DNA of 41,358 nucleotides from a virus (taxonomy: Duplodnaviria > Heunggongvirae > Uroviricota > Caudoviricetes). Both the position numbers and the translations under genes were made by a program. The notes below the pieces were generated by a model. The model saw only the letters and a list, made by a program, of their open reading frames with translations. It made no database searches and had not been told where the DNA came from. Position 1 is the first letter of the stretch; each line of letters starts with the position of its first letter. Positions 2,398-36,027 of this stretch are shown one piece after another. Location of the stretch: IMG/VR virus record IMGVR_UViG_2740892232_000004; one strand, 5' to 3'.

Positions 2398-2695
2398 GTT
2401 TAGACCTCGATACTTTAAAAATTTGAACGACGTTACCGCGCGTTTTAATAACCGCAGCCAGCATGACAGCGTTGATAATGACCTCAGATAAATCCACAGC
2501 CATTGGCGTACGTAACCAGATTGCATAGGCGACTCGAACAGGAATACTGGCCGCAGCAACAATCAGGAAATAAGCAAGCCATCCTCCCCACCTTCGATGT
2601 TGAGAGCCGTTACGCCGGAATGTGACAACGCGAATTGCTATGCCAGTGCAAATAACTGCATTGGTGATAAGCAAAAAAAACTCATGCGTTACCAT
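2387..2695 (-). CDS. Lysis-cassette membrane protein (holin/antiholin-like, 2 predicted TM segments)
   Basis: ATG with GGGGAGAA RBS; hydrophobic segments; overlaps holin stop and endolysin start. Confidence 0.55.
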
Positions 2696-3086
2696 CGTCT
2701 TTTCTCCCCGGAATTAACTCGCGTGGATTATCGGAACGGTGATAGAGCCATATACCAATACGCACAGCGACAATTGCTGACACGAATGCGCCTGCAGAGA
2801 AAACAATCCCTTTTTCAAAAGAGTCCTGCGTGATGGTAGGGATCAGGCTGGCTATGCCGATAAGAATTGATGCTGCTGGTTTGTAAAAGAGAAGGCCGCA
2901 AAGAAAGCTGAGCATCGACAGGAGCACCCGGCGACGGATGGGGTACTCTACTGCAGAGGTAACAAAAATTACCGCCCCAGCCAAAGCCCCTAAAGCAACC
3001 TCCGGAGGGGCACCTGCAATAACCGCAGCAAGAGAACTAAAACTAAGCAACTGATTTAATTGCTCACTTGTTACTTGAGCAGACAT
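2682..3086 (-). CDS. Holin-like membrane protein
   Basis: 134 aa, multiple hydrophobic helices, first gene of the lysis cassette upstream of endolysin. Confidence 0.6.
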   Translation of the reverse strand: MSAQVTSEQLNQLLSFSSLAAVIAGAPPEVALGALAGAVIFVTSAVEYPIRRRVLLSMLSFLCGLLFYKPAASILIGIASLIPTITQDSFEKGIVFSAGAFVSAIVAVRIGIWLYHRSDNPRELIPGRKDDGNA

Positions 3087-3367
3087 ACTTTCTCCTGTTT
3101 ACTATCTATAAGCCAGTCAATTATTGATGACTAAACCCGCATAGTAAACCATATATGAATCATTATTGTTCCATATCATATATCTCAATAAAAGTACTAA
3201 TGATTTTACAGAACGAGCCAGCAGAGTGGGGGCAGTTGTACAGGAACCATAGACTTAATTTTGTATTTAATAATGCTATGGTGTAATAAACCTGAACATG
3301 TATTTAAAATACGTACTGATTCATGATAGAATTCAAAGATAACTTTTCACAAACTCCGTTTTTGATA

Positions 3368-3394
3368 CCCGCAAAATATTGCGGGCTTTTTTTT
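3368..3394 (+). terminator. Hairpin plus T-run (plus-strand terminator-like) overlapping tailspike stop
   Basis: CCCGCAA-AATA-TTGCGGG followed by T8 on the plus strand; no T-run on the minus strand. Confidence 0.35.
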
Positions 3395-6300
3395 AACGTT
3401 CTTCCAGAGACTGAATCCGCTCTTTTATCTTATCCATTTCTCTGCGCTGCCATGCTGCCTCGATATAGAATAAGAGATCAGGTCTGACCCCCCATCTAGA
3501 TCCTGCTGGCGTTATTTCAACGCGCTCAATGATGTCTTCCATTACCATCACTGGATTATCATCCTCATCAACAATGATGCTCCCGTCATTATCAGTCAGC
3601 GGCATTTCCCTTTGGCCAGTAATGACGTCATCATATACTGCGGGATAATCGTCATAGCAAAGAAAGGCATAGCGGCATGTTGTGCTTTCTTCTTCCATGA
3701 GTCCGTGAGAAATAAGAACATCACGAAGTTGCTGCGCGATTACACCATGATGTATCCTCGCCCCTTCTTCCCCCTTTATAGCGACAGCGTTCAGCCATTT
3801 ATAAGCGATATACCTGACGTCACCCCAGGCATCCAGCAATGCTTCGTCAGGAGAGACCGGCTCTGTCTTTAATGTTCCGTCACTGGTAACCACAGGATTG
3901 GAGCCAAGATAAACTGTCGAGAACCTGTTTCCCGGACCACCAAGAGCATTTACATTATCAAGATAAGGTTTAACATCTCCGTTCTCAAAAAGATGTTCGA
4001 GTGCGTTATATACCGCGCGACGTGGAGTACTGCTTCCGGAACCATGCAACGTTATCATTGCACCATCTGCTGAAGACGTTGTTTCACCGCCGCTAACGAT
4101 TAATCTCTGAGCGGTAACATCATCAGACGGTACTTTCTTCGCAATAATGGCGTAATTACCCTCAAGTTTGACTTCCGCGCGAACTTGTCCTGATGTACCT
4201 GCATGGACAGTCAGTGACTGGACGGCAACATCATCTGTGAAATCAACGGGTACAGGAACCGTCCTCACGCCTGACGTCGACATAAAAGTAGGAAGCGTTC
4301 TGTTAGGAGTGGCTCCGTAGACAAAATCCCTTGAAACAAATTCTTCCTGTTTAATTTTCACCCTGAAACAATACAAATCAGCCGGGTGACCATCGTGAAC
4401 ATAAGGATATTTTCTGTTGTTATCCCCTATGCTCCATGGGTTTAGAAAGTCTTCCCCACCGAAAATGTAGTACAGCCAGTTGTCTTTGATACAAACTGAA
4501 CCAACACCAACTGCAGAGTTAACTATTCCGCCCTGATAAATCTGATCAGTAACATTAACCCACTCTACATTATCCAGACTCCACTCATTGACGTTAACTC
4601 TGGTCATAAATGTTCTTGGATAATTTCCTGCATAACGGTTATCAGGTTCTCCTCCTTCCCACTCACCAAATGCGCGCTCACTGCCAAAAATAATCAGCTC
4701 ATCGCCAACTTTGGCAAAAGGAAGGTTTGAGTGATGAACATTATTTGGGAAGCGAAGAGAATTCCATGATGTACCTAAATCAGAGCTTCTGTGCAATGAA
4801 CTACCGGGTTGAGTACTTAATGTCCCCCTGGTCGTCAGATACAGAATGCCATCATAATATTTTACACATGGCTCAGATGCATTCGCCTCATATTCTGCAG
4901 GTATGCGTCTGCGAACAAAGCTACCAGGAGAACCGAAAGCATCAGAGAAATAGAGTATCCCAAGCTCGCGTGGACCAATATCACCATTATGGTAGCCAAC
5001 AGCAAAACTGTTATCGCTAATCGTCGCAAAACTGTGAATCTCAGTAACAGGAGTGCTTCCGTCAACAAAAGAAGGAATAGTTCCAAGACTGGTTTTTCTC
5101 CATGGTGACGAGTGAAATGATGTACCAAAACTCCAGTATCTACCCTCGTTATTCTGATCCACATCCTGGGTATTTTGCGTCGTAACTGTAAAAGTATTTT
5201 TATCAATAACAGTAGTCACCGTCATATTCCCGGTAACACCTGTAACACCAGAGTTTGAGAAGTTGACAAAATCACCAGCAAATAATCCGTGATCAGTAAT
5301 GCGAATATAAGCGACTTGCTGATTTGCTGCTTTCGTTATACCACCATAAGCGCGAAGGCTGCGACTCATTGGGCGATCCCACAACTCTGCAACCTGCAGT
5401 TTATTTCCGCTCACGGTCCGCGTCTCAATTACAGCAAAAAGGCGATTTCTGACAACCCCCATACTCATGCAGTGATAGTTAACTGTGGGATAGTTTTCAT
5501 GTAAATCTGTAAGCCATTCCGGCGTTGTCCAGGTCTTCCCGTCATCTCCTGAGCGAACCCATGCAACATGGAGGTTATTTACACCATGGCGGTCTCCAGC
5601 CATAAAAGGCGCATAGATGACATTGTCATATACAAACGTTTTATCCTGCGTCCAGGCGTTGTACCACGGTGTATCTGTAATTTTAAATAACTCTCCCTGG
5701 ATAAAATCTTCAGAAGCATAAAAAAGAGGCTGGCCCGGTATTCTCTCAAATAAAAAACGAGCATTTTTAAATCGACTGACATCCGGAAGAGTTGATACTT
5801 TAAAAGTAAGCCCTAATCCGTCAATTTTATAACCTGGAGATGAGGCTTCAAGGCACGCGCTTATTGCAGTGGAATCGTCATTTATACCATCACCAACAGC
5901 TCCAAAATCTTTGGGGCTAATAGCATCACGCATTTTATCCTGGAACGTTCGGTACACAGCCCCAGAACCATACTGAATAAACCAACCAAAACCACCAACA
6001 ACCCCGGCGATTGCAGCATCGACATAATTACGCATTGAGCGATTATTTACAGCGTCCTGCTCAAATGATGGATCTGCAAGGTTAGAAATTTTGTTTTGCT
6101 TTGCATCGTAATATTTTGCAAGCAAAGATGGTTTCATCAATGCACGTCTGAACCACCCAAAACATTGCTGGATCAGCATCGTCAGGTAGTCAAAGGCATC
6201 TTCATGCACTTCGGGGAAAAATTTTCCCTGATTGCGAAGGTCTGTCTCCTGCACTACATCAAGCACACGATCTATCGTAATTCGCCATCCAGTAGCAAGC

Positions 6301-6512
6301 GGAGACGGAAGAACCACAGAACCGCCACTATAAGTGCCCGCCCCAGTTACCGTATAACCGGTATCCAGAACCAATTCTGTTACGTTTCCGTTCAGGTCAG
6401 ACACCTGAACAACCAGGTCTGATTTTCTGAAAATTCGAAAAGTATACGGAAACGATGTCGTAACGCCGTTACCGGTGTATTCGTTGTGGTCAACTTCGGT
6501 TGAGACCGTCAT
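3393..6512 (-). CDS. Tailspike/tail fibre: N-terminal particle-binding domain, central domain with sialidase-type Asp-box motifs, C-terminal intramolecular-chaperone (peptidase S74-like) domain
   Basis: 1039 aa; GGAGAT RBS; Asp-box-like SGDDGKTW and SSDLGTSW; C-terminal …TSDGTLK… region typical of auto-cleaving chaperone domains of endosialidases/tail fibres. Confidence 0.75.
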   Translation of the reverse strand: MTVSTEVDHNEYTGNGVTTSFPYTFRIFRKSDLVVQVSDLNGNVTELVLDTGYTVTGAGTYSGGSVVLPSPLATGWRITIDRVLDVVQETDLRNQGKFFPEVHEDAFDYLTMLIQQCFGWFRRALMKPSLLAKYYDAKQNKISNLADPSFEQDAVNNRSMRNYVDAAIAGVVGGFGWFIQYGSGAVYRTFQDKMRDAISPKDFGAVGDGINDDSTAISACLEASSPGYKIDGLGLTFKVSTLPDVSRFKNARFLFERIPGQPLFYASEDFIQGELFKITDTPWYNAWTQDKTFVYDNVIYAPFMAGDRHGVNNLHVAWVRSGDDGKTWTTPEWLTDLHENYPTVNYHCMSMGVVRNRLFAVIETRTVSGNKLQVAELWDRPMSRSLRAYGGITKAANQQVAYIRITDHGLFAGDFVNFSNSGVTGVTGNMTVTTVIDKNTFTVTTQNTQDVDQNNEGRYWSFGTSFHSSPWRKTSLGTIPSFVDGSTPVTEIHSFATISDNSFAVGYHNGDIGPRELGILYFSDAFGSPGSFVRRRIPAEYEANASEPCVKYYDGILYLTTRGTLSTQPGSSLHRSSDLGTSWNSLRFPNNVHHSNLPFAKVGDELIIFGSERAFGEWEGGEPDNRYAGNYPRTFMTRVNVNEWSLDNVEWVNVTDQIYQGGIVNSAVGVGSVCIKDNWLYYIFGGEDFLNPWSIGDNNRKYPYVHDGHPADLYCFRVKIKQEEFVSRDFVYGATPNRTLPTFMSTSGVRTVPVPVDFTDDVAVQSLTVHAGTSGQVRAEVKLEGNYAIIAKKVPSDDVTAQRLIVSGGETTSSADGAMITLHGSGSSTPRRAVYNALEHLFENGDVKPYLDNVNALGGPGNRFSTVYLGSNPVVTSDGTLKTEPVSPDEALLDAWGDVRYIAYKWLNAVAIKGEEGARIHHGVIAQQLRDVLISHGLMEEESTTCRYAFLCYDDYPAVYDDVITGQREMPLTDNDGSIIVDEDDNPVMVMEDIIERVEITPAGSRWGVRPDLLFYIEAAWQRREMDKIKERIQSLEER

Positions 6513-7716: not shown

Positions 7717-7735
7717 TGCTTTTCCTCACAATAAC

Positions 7736-7752
7736 ATTACCTTAAAGGTAAT
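7736..7752. repeat. Palindromic motif ATTACCT-TAA-AGGTAAT (copy 2)
   Basis: Perfect inverted repeat 19 nt upstream of the ATG of the 6988-7716 gene. Confidence 0.55.
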
Positions 7753-7828
7753 ATCTTGCTTTCAGGTGATCAAGCGTTAAACGCCACCAACCAAATACGG
7801 TTGATTTTGATATTTCTCCGCGTTTATC

Positions 7829-7845
7829 ATTACCTTTGCGGTAAA
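7829..7845. repeat. Palindromic motif ATTACCT-TTG-CGGTAAA (copy 3, degenerate right arm)
   Basis: TTACC-N5-GGTAA core conserved; TTGATA -35-like hexamer about 17 bp upstream. Confidence 0.45.
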
Positions 7846-7935
7846 TTTACATCGCACTCCTCTTGTGCCATAGTAATCGGGCACTGGCAAAATCCAGTGC
7901 CGGGATTGGCGTCCCGGGTTACTAAGTGGCGCATA

Positions 7936-7957
7936 CCACGCCAGACGTGGTTTTTTT
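7936..7957 (+). terminator. Rho-independent terminator-like hairpin in a noncoding region
   Basis: CCACG-CCAGA-CGTGG followed by T7; preceded by a 9-bp stem-loop (GGCACTGG…CCAGTGCC) at about 7879-7902. Confidence 0.45.
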
Positions 7958-8113
7958 ATGCGTTAAGCACAGCTATATCCGAATTATGGTGGGCTGGGCA
8001 GGGGTCCGAAAGGACGCCGGTACCACTTAGGCCGGTACGCCAACCTTGTCCAGTTCACCACCAGTAATTGGCGTTGCGGTGGTGATTAAAATCACTAAGT
8101 GGAGATAACCACC

Positions 8114-8824
8114 ATGGCTAATGCTCAAACTTCCATCTTCAAATTTGAATCTGTTAACCCTATCCGTTCCATCATTATCGATGGCCAACCATGGTTTGTA
8201 GCCCAAGACGTTTGTAGTGCGCTGCGTATCCAAAACGTCACCCAAGCACTTGAAAAACTGGATGATGATGAAAGGTCTATGTTCAACATAGGGCATGAAC
8301 ATCGTGCAATTTTTGACAGCCGAGTAAAAGAGATCAACATCATCTCCGAGTCAGGCCTCTACACACTGATCCTCCGCTGCCGCGACGCAGTGACACCAGG
8401 CACTATCCCCTACCGCTTTCGTAAATGGGTTACGGGTGAGGTTCTTCCTCAGATCCGCCGCACCGGAAGCTACATTAAAAACTCGCTCCCGCAGGAAGAA
8501 CGCATAAAGATGGTTGCCGACCAGGTGGCCAACGCCACGGCGTCAGCAGTAATGCAGGCGATGAAGATAGAGAACAAAACCTACAGCGCCCCACTGAATC
8601 CCGGCTACCGCAGCCTGATTCATTCGCCGTCTGGTGTTCTCGGCCTGACGGAGAACTCACTGCTGATGAATCTGCTGAACCAGTTACAGGACGACGGGCA
8701 CGACGTATCGGGCGCGGCGGCGGAGCTGACCACCATGTTCTGCTACATCGTCGGTGTGAGCAAATGCCTGCGTGATATCCAGACCCACGCGGAATACATC
8801 AACGACAAGGCAGGGTTCTTCTGA
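8114..8824 (+). CDS. BRO-N domain antirepressor-like protein
   Basis: ATG with GGAG RBS; N-terminal BRO-N-like segment (FVAQDVCSAL…ISESGLYTLILR…FRKWV); C-terminal domain homologous to the 6708-6965 product. Confidence 0.75.
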   Translation: MANAQTSIFKFESVNPIRSIIIDGQPWFVAQDVCSALRIQNVTQALEKLDDDERSMFNIGHEHRAIFDSRVKEINIISESGLYTLILRCRDAVTPGTIPYRFRKWVTGEVLPQIRRTGSYIKNSLPQEERIKMVADQVANATASAVMQAMKIENKTYSAPLNPGYRSLIHSPSGVLGLTENSLLMNLLNQLQDDGHDVSGAAAELTTMFCYIVGVSKCLRDIQTHAEYINDKAGFF

Positions 8825-8895
8825 CGGGCGGTGGCACAGGGATGTGCCTTTAAATAATTCTGTACAGATTGCAGACTGTGGGTGAATAGCGTACT

Positions 8896-8912
8896 ATTAC
8901 CTTAAAGGTAAA
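8896..8912. repeat. Palindromic motif ATTACCT-TAA-AGGTAAA (copy 4)
   Basis: Directly abuts the AGGAGG RBS of the 8924 ORF. Confidence 0.5.
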
Positions 8913-8923
8913 GGAGGCGCGAT

Positions 8924-9091
8924 ATGACAGCGTTGAAAAATCGTACTCAGCACAATGAACAAGCCAAGCAATGCTGGGATGTCATTGGAAAAGTTATGCT
9001 TGGCCGCGCAAGCAAAGAGCGCGACAAGGATATGGTTTACCAGACAGGAACATCTTTCAGCGACTTCAAGGCGGCATTTCGCTCCAAATAG
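8924..9091 (+). CDS. Small hydrophilic protein (55 aa), unknown function
   Basis: Strong AGGAGG RBS 6 nt before ATG; below the ORF-track size cutoff; first gene of a two-gene cassette. Confidence 0.45.
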   Translation: MTALKNRTQHNEQAKQCWDVIGKVMLGRASKERDKDMVYQTGTSFSDFKAAFRSK

Positions 9092-9111
9092 AAGCACATC
9101 AGGAGTTTTCC

Positions 9112-9552
9112 TTGAAGTTTAACATTAGAATATCTAATAGTTTTCTACATGGGGAAAGCAACACCCCTTTCGCTGTAGACGGACCTTTCCTTACTGATGA
9201 TGAAATAAAAATCATACAAAGTTTTTTAGAGGATGTTGCCAATGGAAGGGCGCTTGTTGGAAAAAACAAGCCCTCGTGGGTTGATGATAACCATGATAAA
9301 ATTCCCGGCTCAGACAATTATGAGCAAGAGAATTATTGGCATTATCATTGTGGGCCAACATGGTATCCAAACACATTTAAGAATTATACCATTAACTTAA
9401 ATTTCAACCCTGGCGGAAGGCATTCTAATGAATGCATTCATTATGCAAAAAATGATAATGAAATTGTCATTGTTGGATTTTCAAGAGAACACATACCTTT
9501 CCTTTCATCAGATGGAAACAACAATCCGCTTTTTAATGATGAAGAAGAATAG
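9112..9552 (+). CDS. AT-rich moron protein (146 aa from proposed TTG start), unknown function
   Basis: Visibly lower GC than flanks; AGGAG 6 nt before TTG; no in-frame ATG except the overlapping one at 8971; N/D-rich product with single CGP and C-H pairs. Confidence 0.5.
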   Translation: MKFNIRISNSFLHGESNTPFAVDGPFLTDDEIKIIQSFLEDVANGRALVGKNKPSWVDDNHDKIPGSDNYEQENYWHYHCGPTWYPNTFKNYTINLNFNPGGRHSNECIHYAKNDNEIVIVGFSREHIPFLSSDGNNNPLFNDEEE

Positions 9553-9573
9553 CCCGCGCTGCGGGCTTTTTTG
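9551..9573 (+). terminator. Rho-independent terminator of the moron cassette
   Basis: AGCCCGC-GCT-GCGGGCT followed by T6. Confidence 0.7.
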
Positions 9574-9644
9574 TGGACGAAACAAAAGTCAGTGCTACAC
9601 TCATTGACGCCACATTGAGGTGGCTTATAGATGGAAATTTCACA

Positions 9645-9806
9645 ATGAAAAAAGCATTTGCTGCACTGTTCGTTTTGTTGTCTCTGGTAGCTTCAACTCA
9701 GGCCTTTGCCGGTCGTTGTCAGCACGACAGCGACACTGCTGCTGACGGCTCCCGCTGCGGTGGGCGTTCTGCGGACTCCCGTCCGGGCGGCGGTGGCATT
9801 CGTTAA
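9645..9806 (+). CDS. Small predicted secreted protein (53 aa)
   Basis: Signal-peptide-like N-terminus (MKKAFAALFVLLSLVASTQAFA), Gly-rich mature part with 2 Cys; TTGACG-16-TATAGA promoter-like elements upstream. Confidence 0.3.
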   Translation: MKKAFAALFVLLSLVASTQAFAGRCQHDSDTAADGSRCGGRSADSRPGGGGIR

Positions 9807-9848: not shown

Positions 9849-9989
9849 TTATGACAAGCCTATGTACCCTGCTACACCAGATAATATCATAATAACTGCA
9901 ACAGCAAATTCGCCATCGTCAATGATACATTTACGGTTCATAACGCCAAGTGCAACAAGCGCAAACACAACAAGAATAAAAGCAATCAT
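9849..9989 (-). CDS. Small membrane protein (46 aa) at the end of the virion operon
   Basis: AAGGA RBS then ATG immediately after the stop of the 824-aa virion protein; two hydrophobic segments; followed by the minus-strand terminator. Confidence 0.4.
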   Translation of the reverse strand: MIAFILVVFALVALGVMNRKCIIDDGEFAVAVIMILSGVAGYIGLS

Positions 9990-35442: not shown

Positions 35443-36027
35443 ATGAAAAGTATCCAGGACGTCCGCAGGCAAAATCTCAACGACTTGATCGACCGTGAAT
35501 TCAATGGTGTTCAGACGCGGATGGCAGAAAAACTTGGAACTCAGGCAAATCTGGTAAACCGCTGGGCTCTTGGCAAGAAGGTTATCGGCGACCAGGTTGC
35601 ACGAAAAATTGAAGCTGCCGCCAATAAACCCCGTAACTGGCTTGATATTGATCGTTCGCTTTCTCAGGAGGGTTTTCAGCCTGTCGGCCCGAGCGATATA
35701 GGTCAGCTGGCGGCTCACAACCTGGAACGCTGGATGAGCGAAAGCCGCGACCTTTCAACACAGGGAAAACTTCACCGCGCATCCGGCGTCGCCCAGGTGA
35801 CAATCAGCCGCCTGTTAAACAATGAGGTCAGCGTTTCCATTTCCACCCTGGAGAATGTTGCATCCGCATTCGGGCGTCACGGATATGAACTACTGATTCA
35901 CCCGCACGACCCTGCGACTATCAACTATGACCGCTCACGCTACGCATTGTTACCCGAAACCGAGAAAGCAAAGATCGAAAGTTACATTGAATTTGTCATC
36001 AACCAGAACGAAAAAAGCAAACAATAA
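35443..36027 (+). CDS. CI-like repressor with two HTH-like segments and no LexA-type (S24) autocleavage domain
   Basis: 194 aa; HTH-like regions around residues 25-45 and 105-135; no GDSM / Ser-Lys dyad motif; no obvious SD upstream of ATG. Confidence 0.65.
   Translation: MKSIQDVRRQNLNDLIDREFNGVQTRMAEKLGTQANLVNRWALGKKVIGDQVARKIEAAANKPRNWLDIDRSLSQEGFQPVGPSDIGQLAAHNLERWMSESRDLSTQGKLHRASGVAQVTISRLLNNEVSVSISTLENVASAFGRHGYELLIHPHDPATINYDRSRYALLPETEKAKIESYIEFVINQNEKSKQ

Follow-up and report, generated by a model that had tools for sequence, protein, structure and literature searches.

Among described systems, the nearest counterparts of the locus analyzed here are type II systems of the toxin-antitoxin (TA) kind with ribosome-dependent mRNA interferases of the RelE/ParE superfamily such as RelE, YafQ, YoeB, and HigB (e.g., PDB entries 1wmi_C, 4q2u_B, and 2a6q_E), and YafO, a ribosome-dependent mRNA interferase assigned to the RelE superfamily by secondary-structure prediction (PMC2814082). 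The locus itself is a pair of genes, orfA and orfB, in a 41,358-nucleotide stretch of Caudoviricetes DNA (IMG/VR record IMGVR_UViG_2740892232_000004; hereafter the window, i.e., this stretch at its full length). Because of the predicted fold of orfB, the near-universal pairing of the two genes, and a YafO-family cassette in the same slot of related prophages, we favor, with moderate confidence, the view that orfA-orfB is a type II TA-like module in which a new RelE-superfamily toxin (orfB) and a small helical partner (orfA) together occupy a repressor-gated socket in the backbone of a Uetakevirus prophage of E. coli.

Both genes lie on the plus strand. orfA runs from an ATG at 8924 to its stop at 9091 (55 aa; RefSeq WP_000125783.1) and has a strong ribosome-binding site (RBS; AAGGAGG, 8911-8917) 6 nt before the ATG, and orfB runs from a TTG at 9112 to its stop at 9552 (441 nt, 146 aa; RefSeq WP_000671198.1) with an AGGAG motif, read from the sequence as its RBS, again 6 nt before the start (9101-9105). 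An earlier annotation made from the letters of the window without database searches (the sequence-only reading) had proposed a 55-aa frame with a strong RBS and a 146-aa frame with a TTG start and no internal ATG, and both models hold up. The orfB translation contains no methionine and hence no internal ATG, its homologs begin with MKF or MKI precisely at the residue encoded from 9112, the PHROG 5954 profile aligns to it end to end (1-142 to 1-143), and RefSeq PGAP calls the identical 441-nt coding sequence; as homolog starts, profile, and PGAP call agree, we place the start of orfB at 9112. The frame is open upstream as far as an ATG at 8971 that overlaps orfA, and a 193-aa version of orfB beginning there was rejected due to this overlap and because all three lines of evidence start at 9112. 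The orfB frame is the sole one open across all orthologs examined and, judged by such sequence comparisons, both orfA and orfB are real genes.

The sequence-only reading had also pointed to a sharp drop in GC content, which is real for orfB (0.356 against a window mean of 0.489 with a standard deviation of 0.037 in sliding 441-nt windows, placing orfB in the lowest 0.2% of them) and is confined to this gene. The flanks of the pair have a GC content of 0.54-0.59, orfA is compositionally ordinary at 0.47, and the orthologs of orfB are AT-rich in each host examined (0.33-0.42). The low GC content thus characterizes orfB and its family, not the cassette as a whole.

The family of orfB has been cataloged without function (PHROG 5954, with PHROG 8607 for orfA; "hypothetical protein" in RefSeq), and we found no description of this family or of its Uetakevirus slot in the literature. 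Searches recovered 34 close homologs (40-99% identity) and 118 by profile, most of them 140-190 aa long, with G50-K-N-K53, S55-W56, W76-H-Y-H-C-G81, Y111, S124, and H127 invariant and with P54 and H110 conserved in at least 90% of sequences. AlphaFold2 run on the family alignment produced a confident model (pLDDT 93, pTM 0.88). The predicted alpha/beta fold is compact, includes an antiparallel sheet, and can be superposed on solved toxins of the RelE/ParE superfamily. The top Foldseek matches of this model are largely RelE/ParE-superfamily proteins at TM-scores of 0.45-0.66 per target and E-values that are not significant, and a Foldseek search of the viral structures in BFVD found nothing. 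The shared core spans ca. 80 of the 146 residues, the remainder being an extension at the N-terminus plus an insertion at 80-107 by which orfB, ca. 55 residues longer, differs from the RelE/ParE interferases; it also shows no detectable sequence similarity to them, and the GKNKPSW and WHYHCG motifs belong to the orfB family alone.

The invariant residues K51, K53, H77, H79, and H127 and the nearly invariant H110 are predicted to lie on or beside strands and may cluster on an exposed face of the beta-sheet. Going by the order of secondary-structure elements and not by superposition, H77 and H79 would sit on the first core strand, H110 on the next, and H127 just past the last, and these histidines may match the positions of catalytic residues in YafQ, YoeB, and HigB. 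We regard orfB, by its model, as a separate family within the RelE/ParE superfamily that is placed there at the fold level only.

The orfA product matches PHROG 8607 (3.6e-39), and a word-indexed search retrieved close full-length homologs only; Pfam, NCBIfam, PADLOC, and PDB sequence searches gave no match. Its AlphaFold2 model, of moderate confidence (pLDDT 71), comprises a helix at 2-42 and a short helix at 45-53. The sequence-only reading had suggested sensitive profile searches and structure prediction for both proteins; the Pfam, NCBIfam, and PDB profiles matched neither, and the models came out RelE/ParE-like for orfB and helical for orfA.

Wherever we read the DNA 5' of divergent orfB homologs, it encodes a homologous C-terminal domain of ca. 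50 aa. The orfA-like proteins that carry it measure 56-62 aa in Pectobacterium, Serratia, Erwinia, and Proteus, 102 aa in Klebsiella, and 159 aa in one Pasteurellaceae genome. A hidden Markov model of this domain matched an open reading frame (ORF) ending 0-21 nt 5' of the orfB homolog at 73 of 77 IMG/VR loci and at 13 of 18 loci from GTDB genomes; at the other loci, too, an ORF of the same direction lies directly 5', and several of these show the same C-terminal pattern by eye. The orfB homolog often has a weak start codon, TTG at 33 of the 77 viral loci and GTG in Erwinia. The surroundings of the pair vary widely, from the same Bro-N slot in Uetakevirus-like prophages of Pectobacterium and Serratia over the nin region of lambdoid prophages in Klebsiella and, in prophages of Haemophilus and Actinobacillus, positions 3' of tape-measure genes to an island in Erwinia that stands alone between accA and a gene of the IF-2B family and comprises just the two genes. 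The two genes are thus adjacent and co-directional in unrelated contexts, as in type II TA modules, and such near-obligatory coupling of a toxin-fold gene to a small one is a signature of these systems. Overall, the pair is found in prophages of Enterobacterales, Pasteurellaceae, and Neisseriaceae, and the family is almost wholly phage- or prophage-borne.

In Pasteurellaceae and Neisseriaceae, the orfA-like domain forms the C-terminus of a 168-211-aa protein with a helical middle part and a hydrophobic, signal-anchor-like N-terminal stretch. These long-form partners lie at about 2400-3000 in loci L020, L021, L024, and L028, at 2366-3001 in L034, and at 1006-1599 in L035, with the pair immediately after the tape-measure gene in L020, L024, and L028. 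As a side observation, the pair is preceded in one Pasteurellaceae genome (L012/L022, 1-2369) by a 2935-aa polyvalent protein with MuF_C, ART-PolyVal, LPD3, and LPD38 domains.

The pair behaves as exchangeable cargo. An alignment with TL-2011b shows near-identity through 8912 and again from about 9547, with unrelated sequence in between, and a comparison of junctions across five cargo variants in E. coli prophages (loci L002, L038, L040, and L041 and the window) delimits the exchanged segment to 8913-9550, from operator to terminator. These variants carry the orfA-orfB pair, the TL-2011b cargo of a 59-aa gene followed by a 181-aa YafO-family protein (gp45/gp44), a DUF4760 protein, a 210-aa hypothetical protein, or a 62-aa plus 110-aa pair, and a further one with a 108-aa protein and a DUF2335 protein has the right end in common. 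In all five, the left junction falls immediately 3' of TACTAT-TTACC-N5-GGTAA and the right junction immediately 5' of AGCCCGC-N3-GCGGGC-T6. The inserts comprise one or two genes in 600-830 bp and are all AT-rich (GC 0.39-0.42). Among 5426 complete E. coli genomes, the flanks occur in 485 and the orfA-orfB cargo in 60, and the TL-2011b-type cargo of small gene and YafO-family toxin fills the slot in many E. coli prophages. That the pair is accessory cargo, as the sequence-only reading had it, is borne out by its flanks, which are identical in TL-2011b and in four further E. coli prophage variants with different genes at this place.

At the left edge of the socket, a putative sigma-70 promoter (8869-8897, plus strand) has a -35 hexamer TTGCAG at 8869-8874, a 17-nt spacer, and a -10 hexamer TACTAT at 8892-8897; it is weak, with 7 of 12 consensus positions, and was read by eye and missed by a promoter scan, though the stretch is kept in relatives with other cargo. 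The 15-bp palindrome TTACCTTAAAGGTAA (8897-8911) overlaps the -10 hexamer and the transcription start, marks the left cargo junction, and is probably a repressor operator. The sequence-only reading had seen a palindrome copy at the 5' end of orfB; it is present, but at the 5' end of the pair. Sites resembling TTACC-N5-GGTAA recur in the window with 24 strand-wise matches at up to 3 mismatches against 0.49 expected (6617, 7737, 7830, 8897, 26075, 33024, 33086, 35325, 35373, 36085, and 36147). Those at 7737 and 7830 are perfect or near-perfect, and each directly follows a -10-like TAnnAT hexamer (7732 and 7825) in the same layout (7732-7751 and 7825-7844) as the palindrome at 8897 with its hexamer at 8892. 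Paired sites also bracket a gene for a 194-aa HTH_3 repressor-like protein (35443-36027), with 35325/35373 upstream and 36085/36147 downstream. Across the five cargo variants, the half-sites TTACC and GGTAA are constant and the center is variable. Together, these palindromes probably make up the prophage repressor's set of operators and, since the same motif flanks the repressor gene, the cargo promoter is probably repressor-gated and not constitutive in lysogens.

At the right edge, the strong terminator that had been noted at the end of orfB is confirmed as an intrinsic terminator on the plus strand (9551-9573) with a stem-loop at 9551-9567, a 7-bp stem of which 6 pairs are G-C, a loop of 3, and a T6 run (-14 kcal/mol). 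It forms the right cargo junction and is conserved in five of five cargo variants. A sub-threshold Rfam Trp_leader match over it (21.5 bits, with the gathering score at 41) was treated as chance. Because relatives with other cargo have the putative promoter, palindrome, and terminator as well, these elements belong, as far as sequence comparison can tell, to the phage backbone and not to the cassette, and the earlier description of the moron as self-contained does not survive. Prophage accessory hotspots such as morons and P2/P4-like defense hotspots likewise have conserved flanks around AT-rich cargo of one or two genes; unlike in those hotspots, the junctions here coincide with a promoter-operator and a terminator, so that the backbone supplies the expression signals.

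Published work bears directly on this locus. Escherichia phage phiv142-3 (MN187550), a member of the genus Uetakevirus (phiV10/epsilon15-like podoviruses), matches the region at 8850-9620 with 100% identity, and phage HEMP4 matches it with 99.6%. Li and colleagues studied "orf10" of phiv142-3 in the serum resistance of avian pathogenic E. coli in 2020 (PMC7724020). This 52-aa frame (QGF19616.1; 9242-9400, plus strand, by the annotation of MN187550) lies inside orfB in another frame and is probably not a gene: Among 11 orthologs examined, it has stops or no start codon in 8, including ones of ca. 75% identity, and is open in three, one of them a relative of 95% identity, while the orfB frame is intact in all, and RefSeq annotates orfB but not orf10. 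We therefore rejected orf10 as a real gene and consider it most likely a mis-called reading frame. The homology arms used for the lambda-Red deletion map to 9182-9241 and 9401-9460, so the published deletion equals 9242-9400 and removes codons of about 44-97 of orfB (53 codons) including the GKNKPSW and WHYHCG motifs, with orfA left intact.

The deletion mutant was viable and grew normally in LB (PMC7724020), as loss of a toxin predicts. Its serum survival was ca. 60% of wild type, kps transcripts were ca. 2-fold lower, and loads in blood and heart were 7-8% of wild type, with complementation reported (PMC7724020). In serum relative to LB, "orf10" rose 2^4.12-fold, orf40 and orf41 rose 2^3.68- and 2^4.56-fold, and the adjacent ant rose 2^1.31-fold (PMC7724020), a pattern that fits a separate promoter derepressed alongside early genes. 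These results show that the orfB locus is expressed in the lysogen and phenotypically relevant; the sequence-only reading had named silence in lysogens as grounds for abandoning a lysogen-benefit role.

By its sequence, the window is a prophage related to phiv142-3 but distinct from that phage, as shown by its tailspike gene (3393-6512, minus strand), which encodes a K1-capsule endosialidase (End_beta_propel, 1e-233) with a Peptidase_S74 chaperone. This tailspike and the 710-aa Orf6 of phiv142-3 differ. Transcripts for the K1 capsule (kps) were also what fell in the published deletion mutant, perhaps by coincidence and perhaps not.

If orfA-orfB works as a TA-like module, transcription would start at the backbone promoter, whose -10 is overlapped by the TTACC-N5-GGTAA operator, and end at the backbone terminator, and the strong RBS and ATG of orfA compared with the TTG of orfB would keep orfA in excess, allowing it to bind and mask orfB. 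The latter may be an mRNA endonuclease that depends on the ribosome in the manner of RelE, YafQ, or YafO, and depletion of orfA, or derepression together with early phage genes, would then free orfB to cut mRNA and slow or reprogram the cell. The outcome could be abortive infection, control of the host during induction, or a serum and capsule phenotype via host gene expression.

Several observations weigh against this interpretation. For orfB, searches of Pfam, NCBIfam, PADLOC, and PDB sequences came back empty, and the same goes for 30 members of its family (Pfam 0 of 30); ten distant homologs likewise hit no significant Pfam family. The partner is atypical, too: Pfam, NCBIfam, and PDB sequence searches and the helical model revealed no recognizable DNA-binding domain in orfA, and the usual DNA-binding folds of antitoxins in RelE/ParE modules (RHH, HTH, AbrB, or Phd/YefM), such as the Phd/YefM-type domain of YafN in the YafN-YafO module of E. 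coli, are missing from it (no Pfam match). A cassette-specific operator is also lacking, as the upstream palindrome is a phage-wide backbone motif kept with other cargo. orfA is hence not the DNA-binding antitoxin autoregulating its own promoter that marks classical type II modules, a departure that fits reliance on the backbone promoter and has a counterpart in PaaA2-ParE2-type modules (PDB 5czf) with their short helical antitoxin without DNA-binding domain. The long-form partners of 185-211 aa with their hydrophobic N-terminus would be unusual for a cytoplasmic antitoxin and hint at a membrane-associated variant. Lastly, orf9 (that is, orfA) is absent from the list of serum-induced genes on which orf10 appears, and the complementing insert is described as "coding sequence and putative promoter region" with undefined boundaries (PMC7724020), so that the phenotype cannot be firmly assigned to full-length orfB.

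The link to YafO adds a further point on this side. Assigning orfB to the YafO family is tempting because the TL-2011b cassette sits in the identical promoter-operator/terminator socket with the same order of small gene and then larger gene, and because the motif order is alike in YafO and orfB (G-K/R-N/D followed by hHxHh), with hhalign aligning both in that register. The gp44 protein of TL-2011b itself matches the Pfam family YafO_toxin (PF13957) at 26.3 bits with a cut-off of 25. The same profile matched none of 30 orfB-family members at E ≤ 1, BLASTP of orfB against gp44 gave an E-value of 1.5, and orfA shows no similarity to gp45. An hhalign comparison of the orfB family with single YafO or gp44 sequences found nothing, and one of 94 orfB-family members with 27 YafO sequences scored 17.7 (E 0.025, probability 2%), a value reached by 1 of 60 column-shuffled controls. 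With no statistical support from BLASTP, PF13957, or the profile-profile comparison, the last of which was marginal, we do not assign orfB to the YafO family.

The strongest competitor of a TA-like module in general keeps the same pair and sees its selected role in anti-phage defense by abortive infection or superinfection exclusion, with orfA as a labile or sensing inhibitor and orfB freed when an incoming phage shuts off the host. RelE-fold toxins of TA type are, in general, established as acting in defense. Such a role would suit a variable accessory slot of a prophage in which a further toxin cassette of RelE type (YafO) is among the alternative cargo, and it would suit a family that is almost entirely phage- or prophage-borne. 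On the other hand, neither the pair nor any alternative cargo protein matched PADLOC (PADLOC-DB 2.0), which sets the socket apart from known defense hotspots, a stand-alone chromosomal copy exists in Erwinia, and expression in lysogens would be low if the prophage repressor binds the operator. We consider dedicated defense possible but rather doubtful. The sequence-only reading had imagined a defense, abortive-infection, or TA-like pair, and the TA-like part of it is what the RelE/ParE fold, the pairing, and the YafO-family cassette in equivalent position uphold, while no known defense family was matched.

Somewhat less probable, and in our view unlikely, is a new sensor-effector system that is no classical addiction module. 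Here, a histidine-rich nuclease of RelE fold would be held by a helical partner, with the membrane-anchor-like N-terminus of the Pasteurellaceae and Neisseriaceae forms in mind, and the whole would serve as a device for abortive infection or host reprogramming in a repressor-gated swap socket. If so, the increases in serum resistance and in the expression of capsule genes that have been reported would be accounted for.

Alternatively, the pair might be a lytic-cycle factor for host takeover, silent in the lysogen and derepressed with the early genes, with orfB degrading host mRNA and orfA acting as a timer or chaperone and not as an addiction antidote. The perfect operator-like palindrome over the putative -10 and the recurrence of its motif around the HTH repressor gene are compatible with this idea, as is the serum response of orf10, which parallels that of two immediate-early replication genes, orf40 and orf41, and by far exceeds that of ant (PMC7724020). 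However, the cargo is dispensable and swapped for unrelated genes in most relatives, and the pair also occurs outside prophages (in Erwinia) and in late-gene regions of Pasteurellaceae prophages, which makes a takeover factor improbable. Finally, that the functional gene is the 52-aa orf10 (9242-9400), or that orfB is a non-toxic regulator raising K1-capsule expression and serum resistance without any TA pair, would account for the deletion phenotype and its reported complementation (PMC7724020) but is highly improbable given the broken orf10 frame in most orthologs next to an invariably intact orfB, the RefSeq annotation, the 53 orfB codons lost in the deletion, the undefined "putative promoter region" of the complementing insert, and the predicted nuclease-toxin fold of orfB.

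Around the socket, the left neighbor of the pair is a Bro-N antirepressor gene (8099-8824), and its right neighbor is a small backbone gene (9636-9806) whose 56-aa product has an N-terminus resembling a signal peptide (MKKAFAALFVLLSLVASTQAFAG...) and is labeled elsewhere as "transmembrane anchored protein". A 46-aa hydrophobic protein is encoded by another backbone gene near the slot on the minus strand (9849-9989), opposite to the gene at 9636-9806, beyond which lie virion genes on the minus strand. The stretch 5' of the antirepressor gene (7868-8065) carries a P1/P7-type immI RNA module by Rfam, composed of c4 a1b1 target sites (7868-7920, slightly under the gathering score), an isrK-like Hfq-binding small RNA (7881-7957, 67.7 bits), and a C4 antisense RNA (7982-8065, 66 bits). 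The sole other stretch of the window as GC-poor as orfB, at about 2960-3500 between the lysis genes and the tailspike (ca. 0.35 in 441-nt windows), may be another cargo position.

TA-type cargo is common in prophages, and the value of this locus lies in the re-reading of orf10, in a new family of predicted RelE fold whose partner is atypical, and in a socket with clean bounds. If orfA-orfB is indeed a TA-like module, an unnamed family absent from Pfam, NCBIfam, and PADLOC would join the RelE/ParE toxin superfamily together with its unusual partner. The published virulence phenotype of orf10 then probably reflects the loss of a RelE-like toxin, which alters how that result should be followed up, and the defined socket between promoter-operator and terminator makes other unknown cargo genes of these prophages easy to enumerate.

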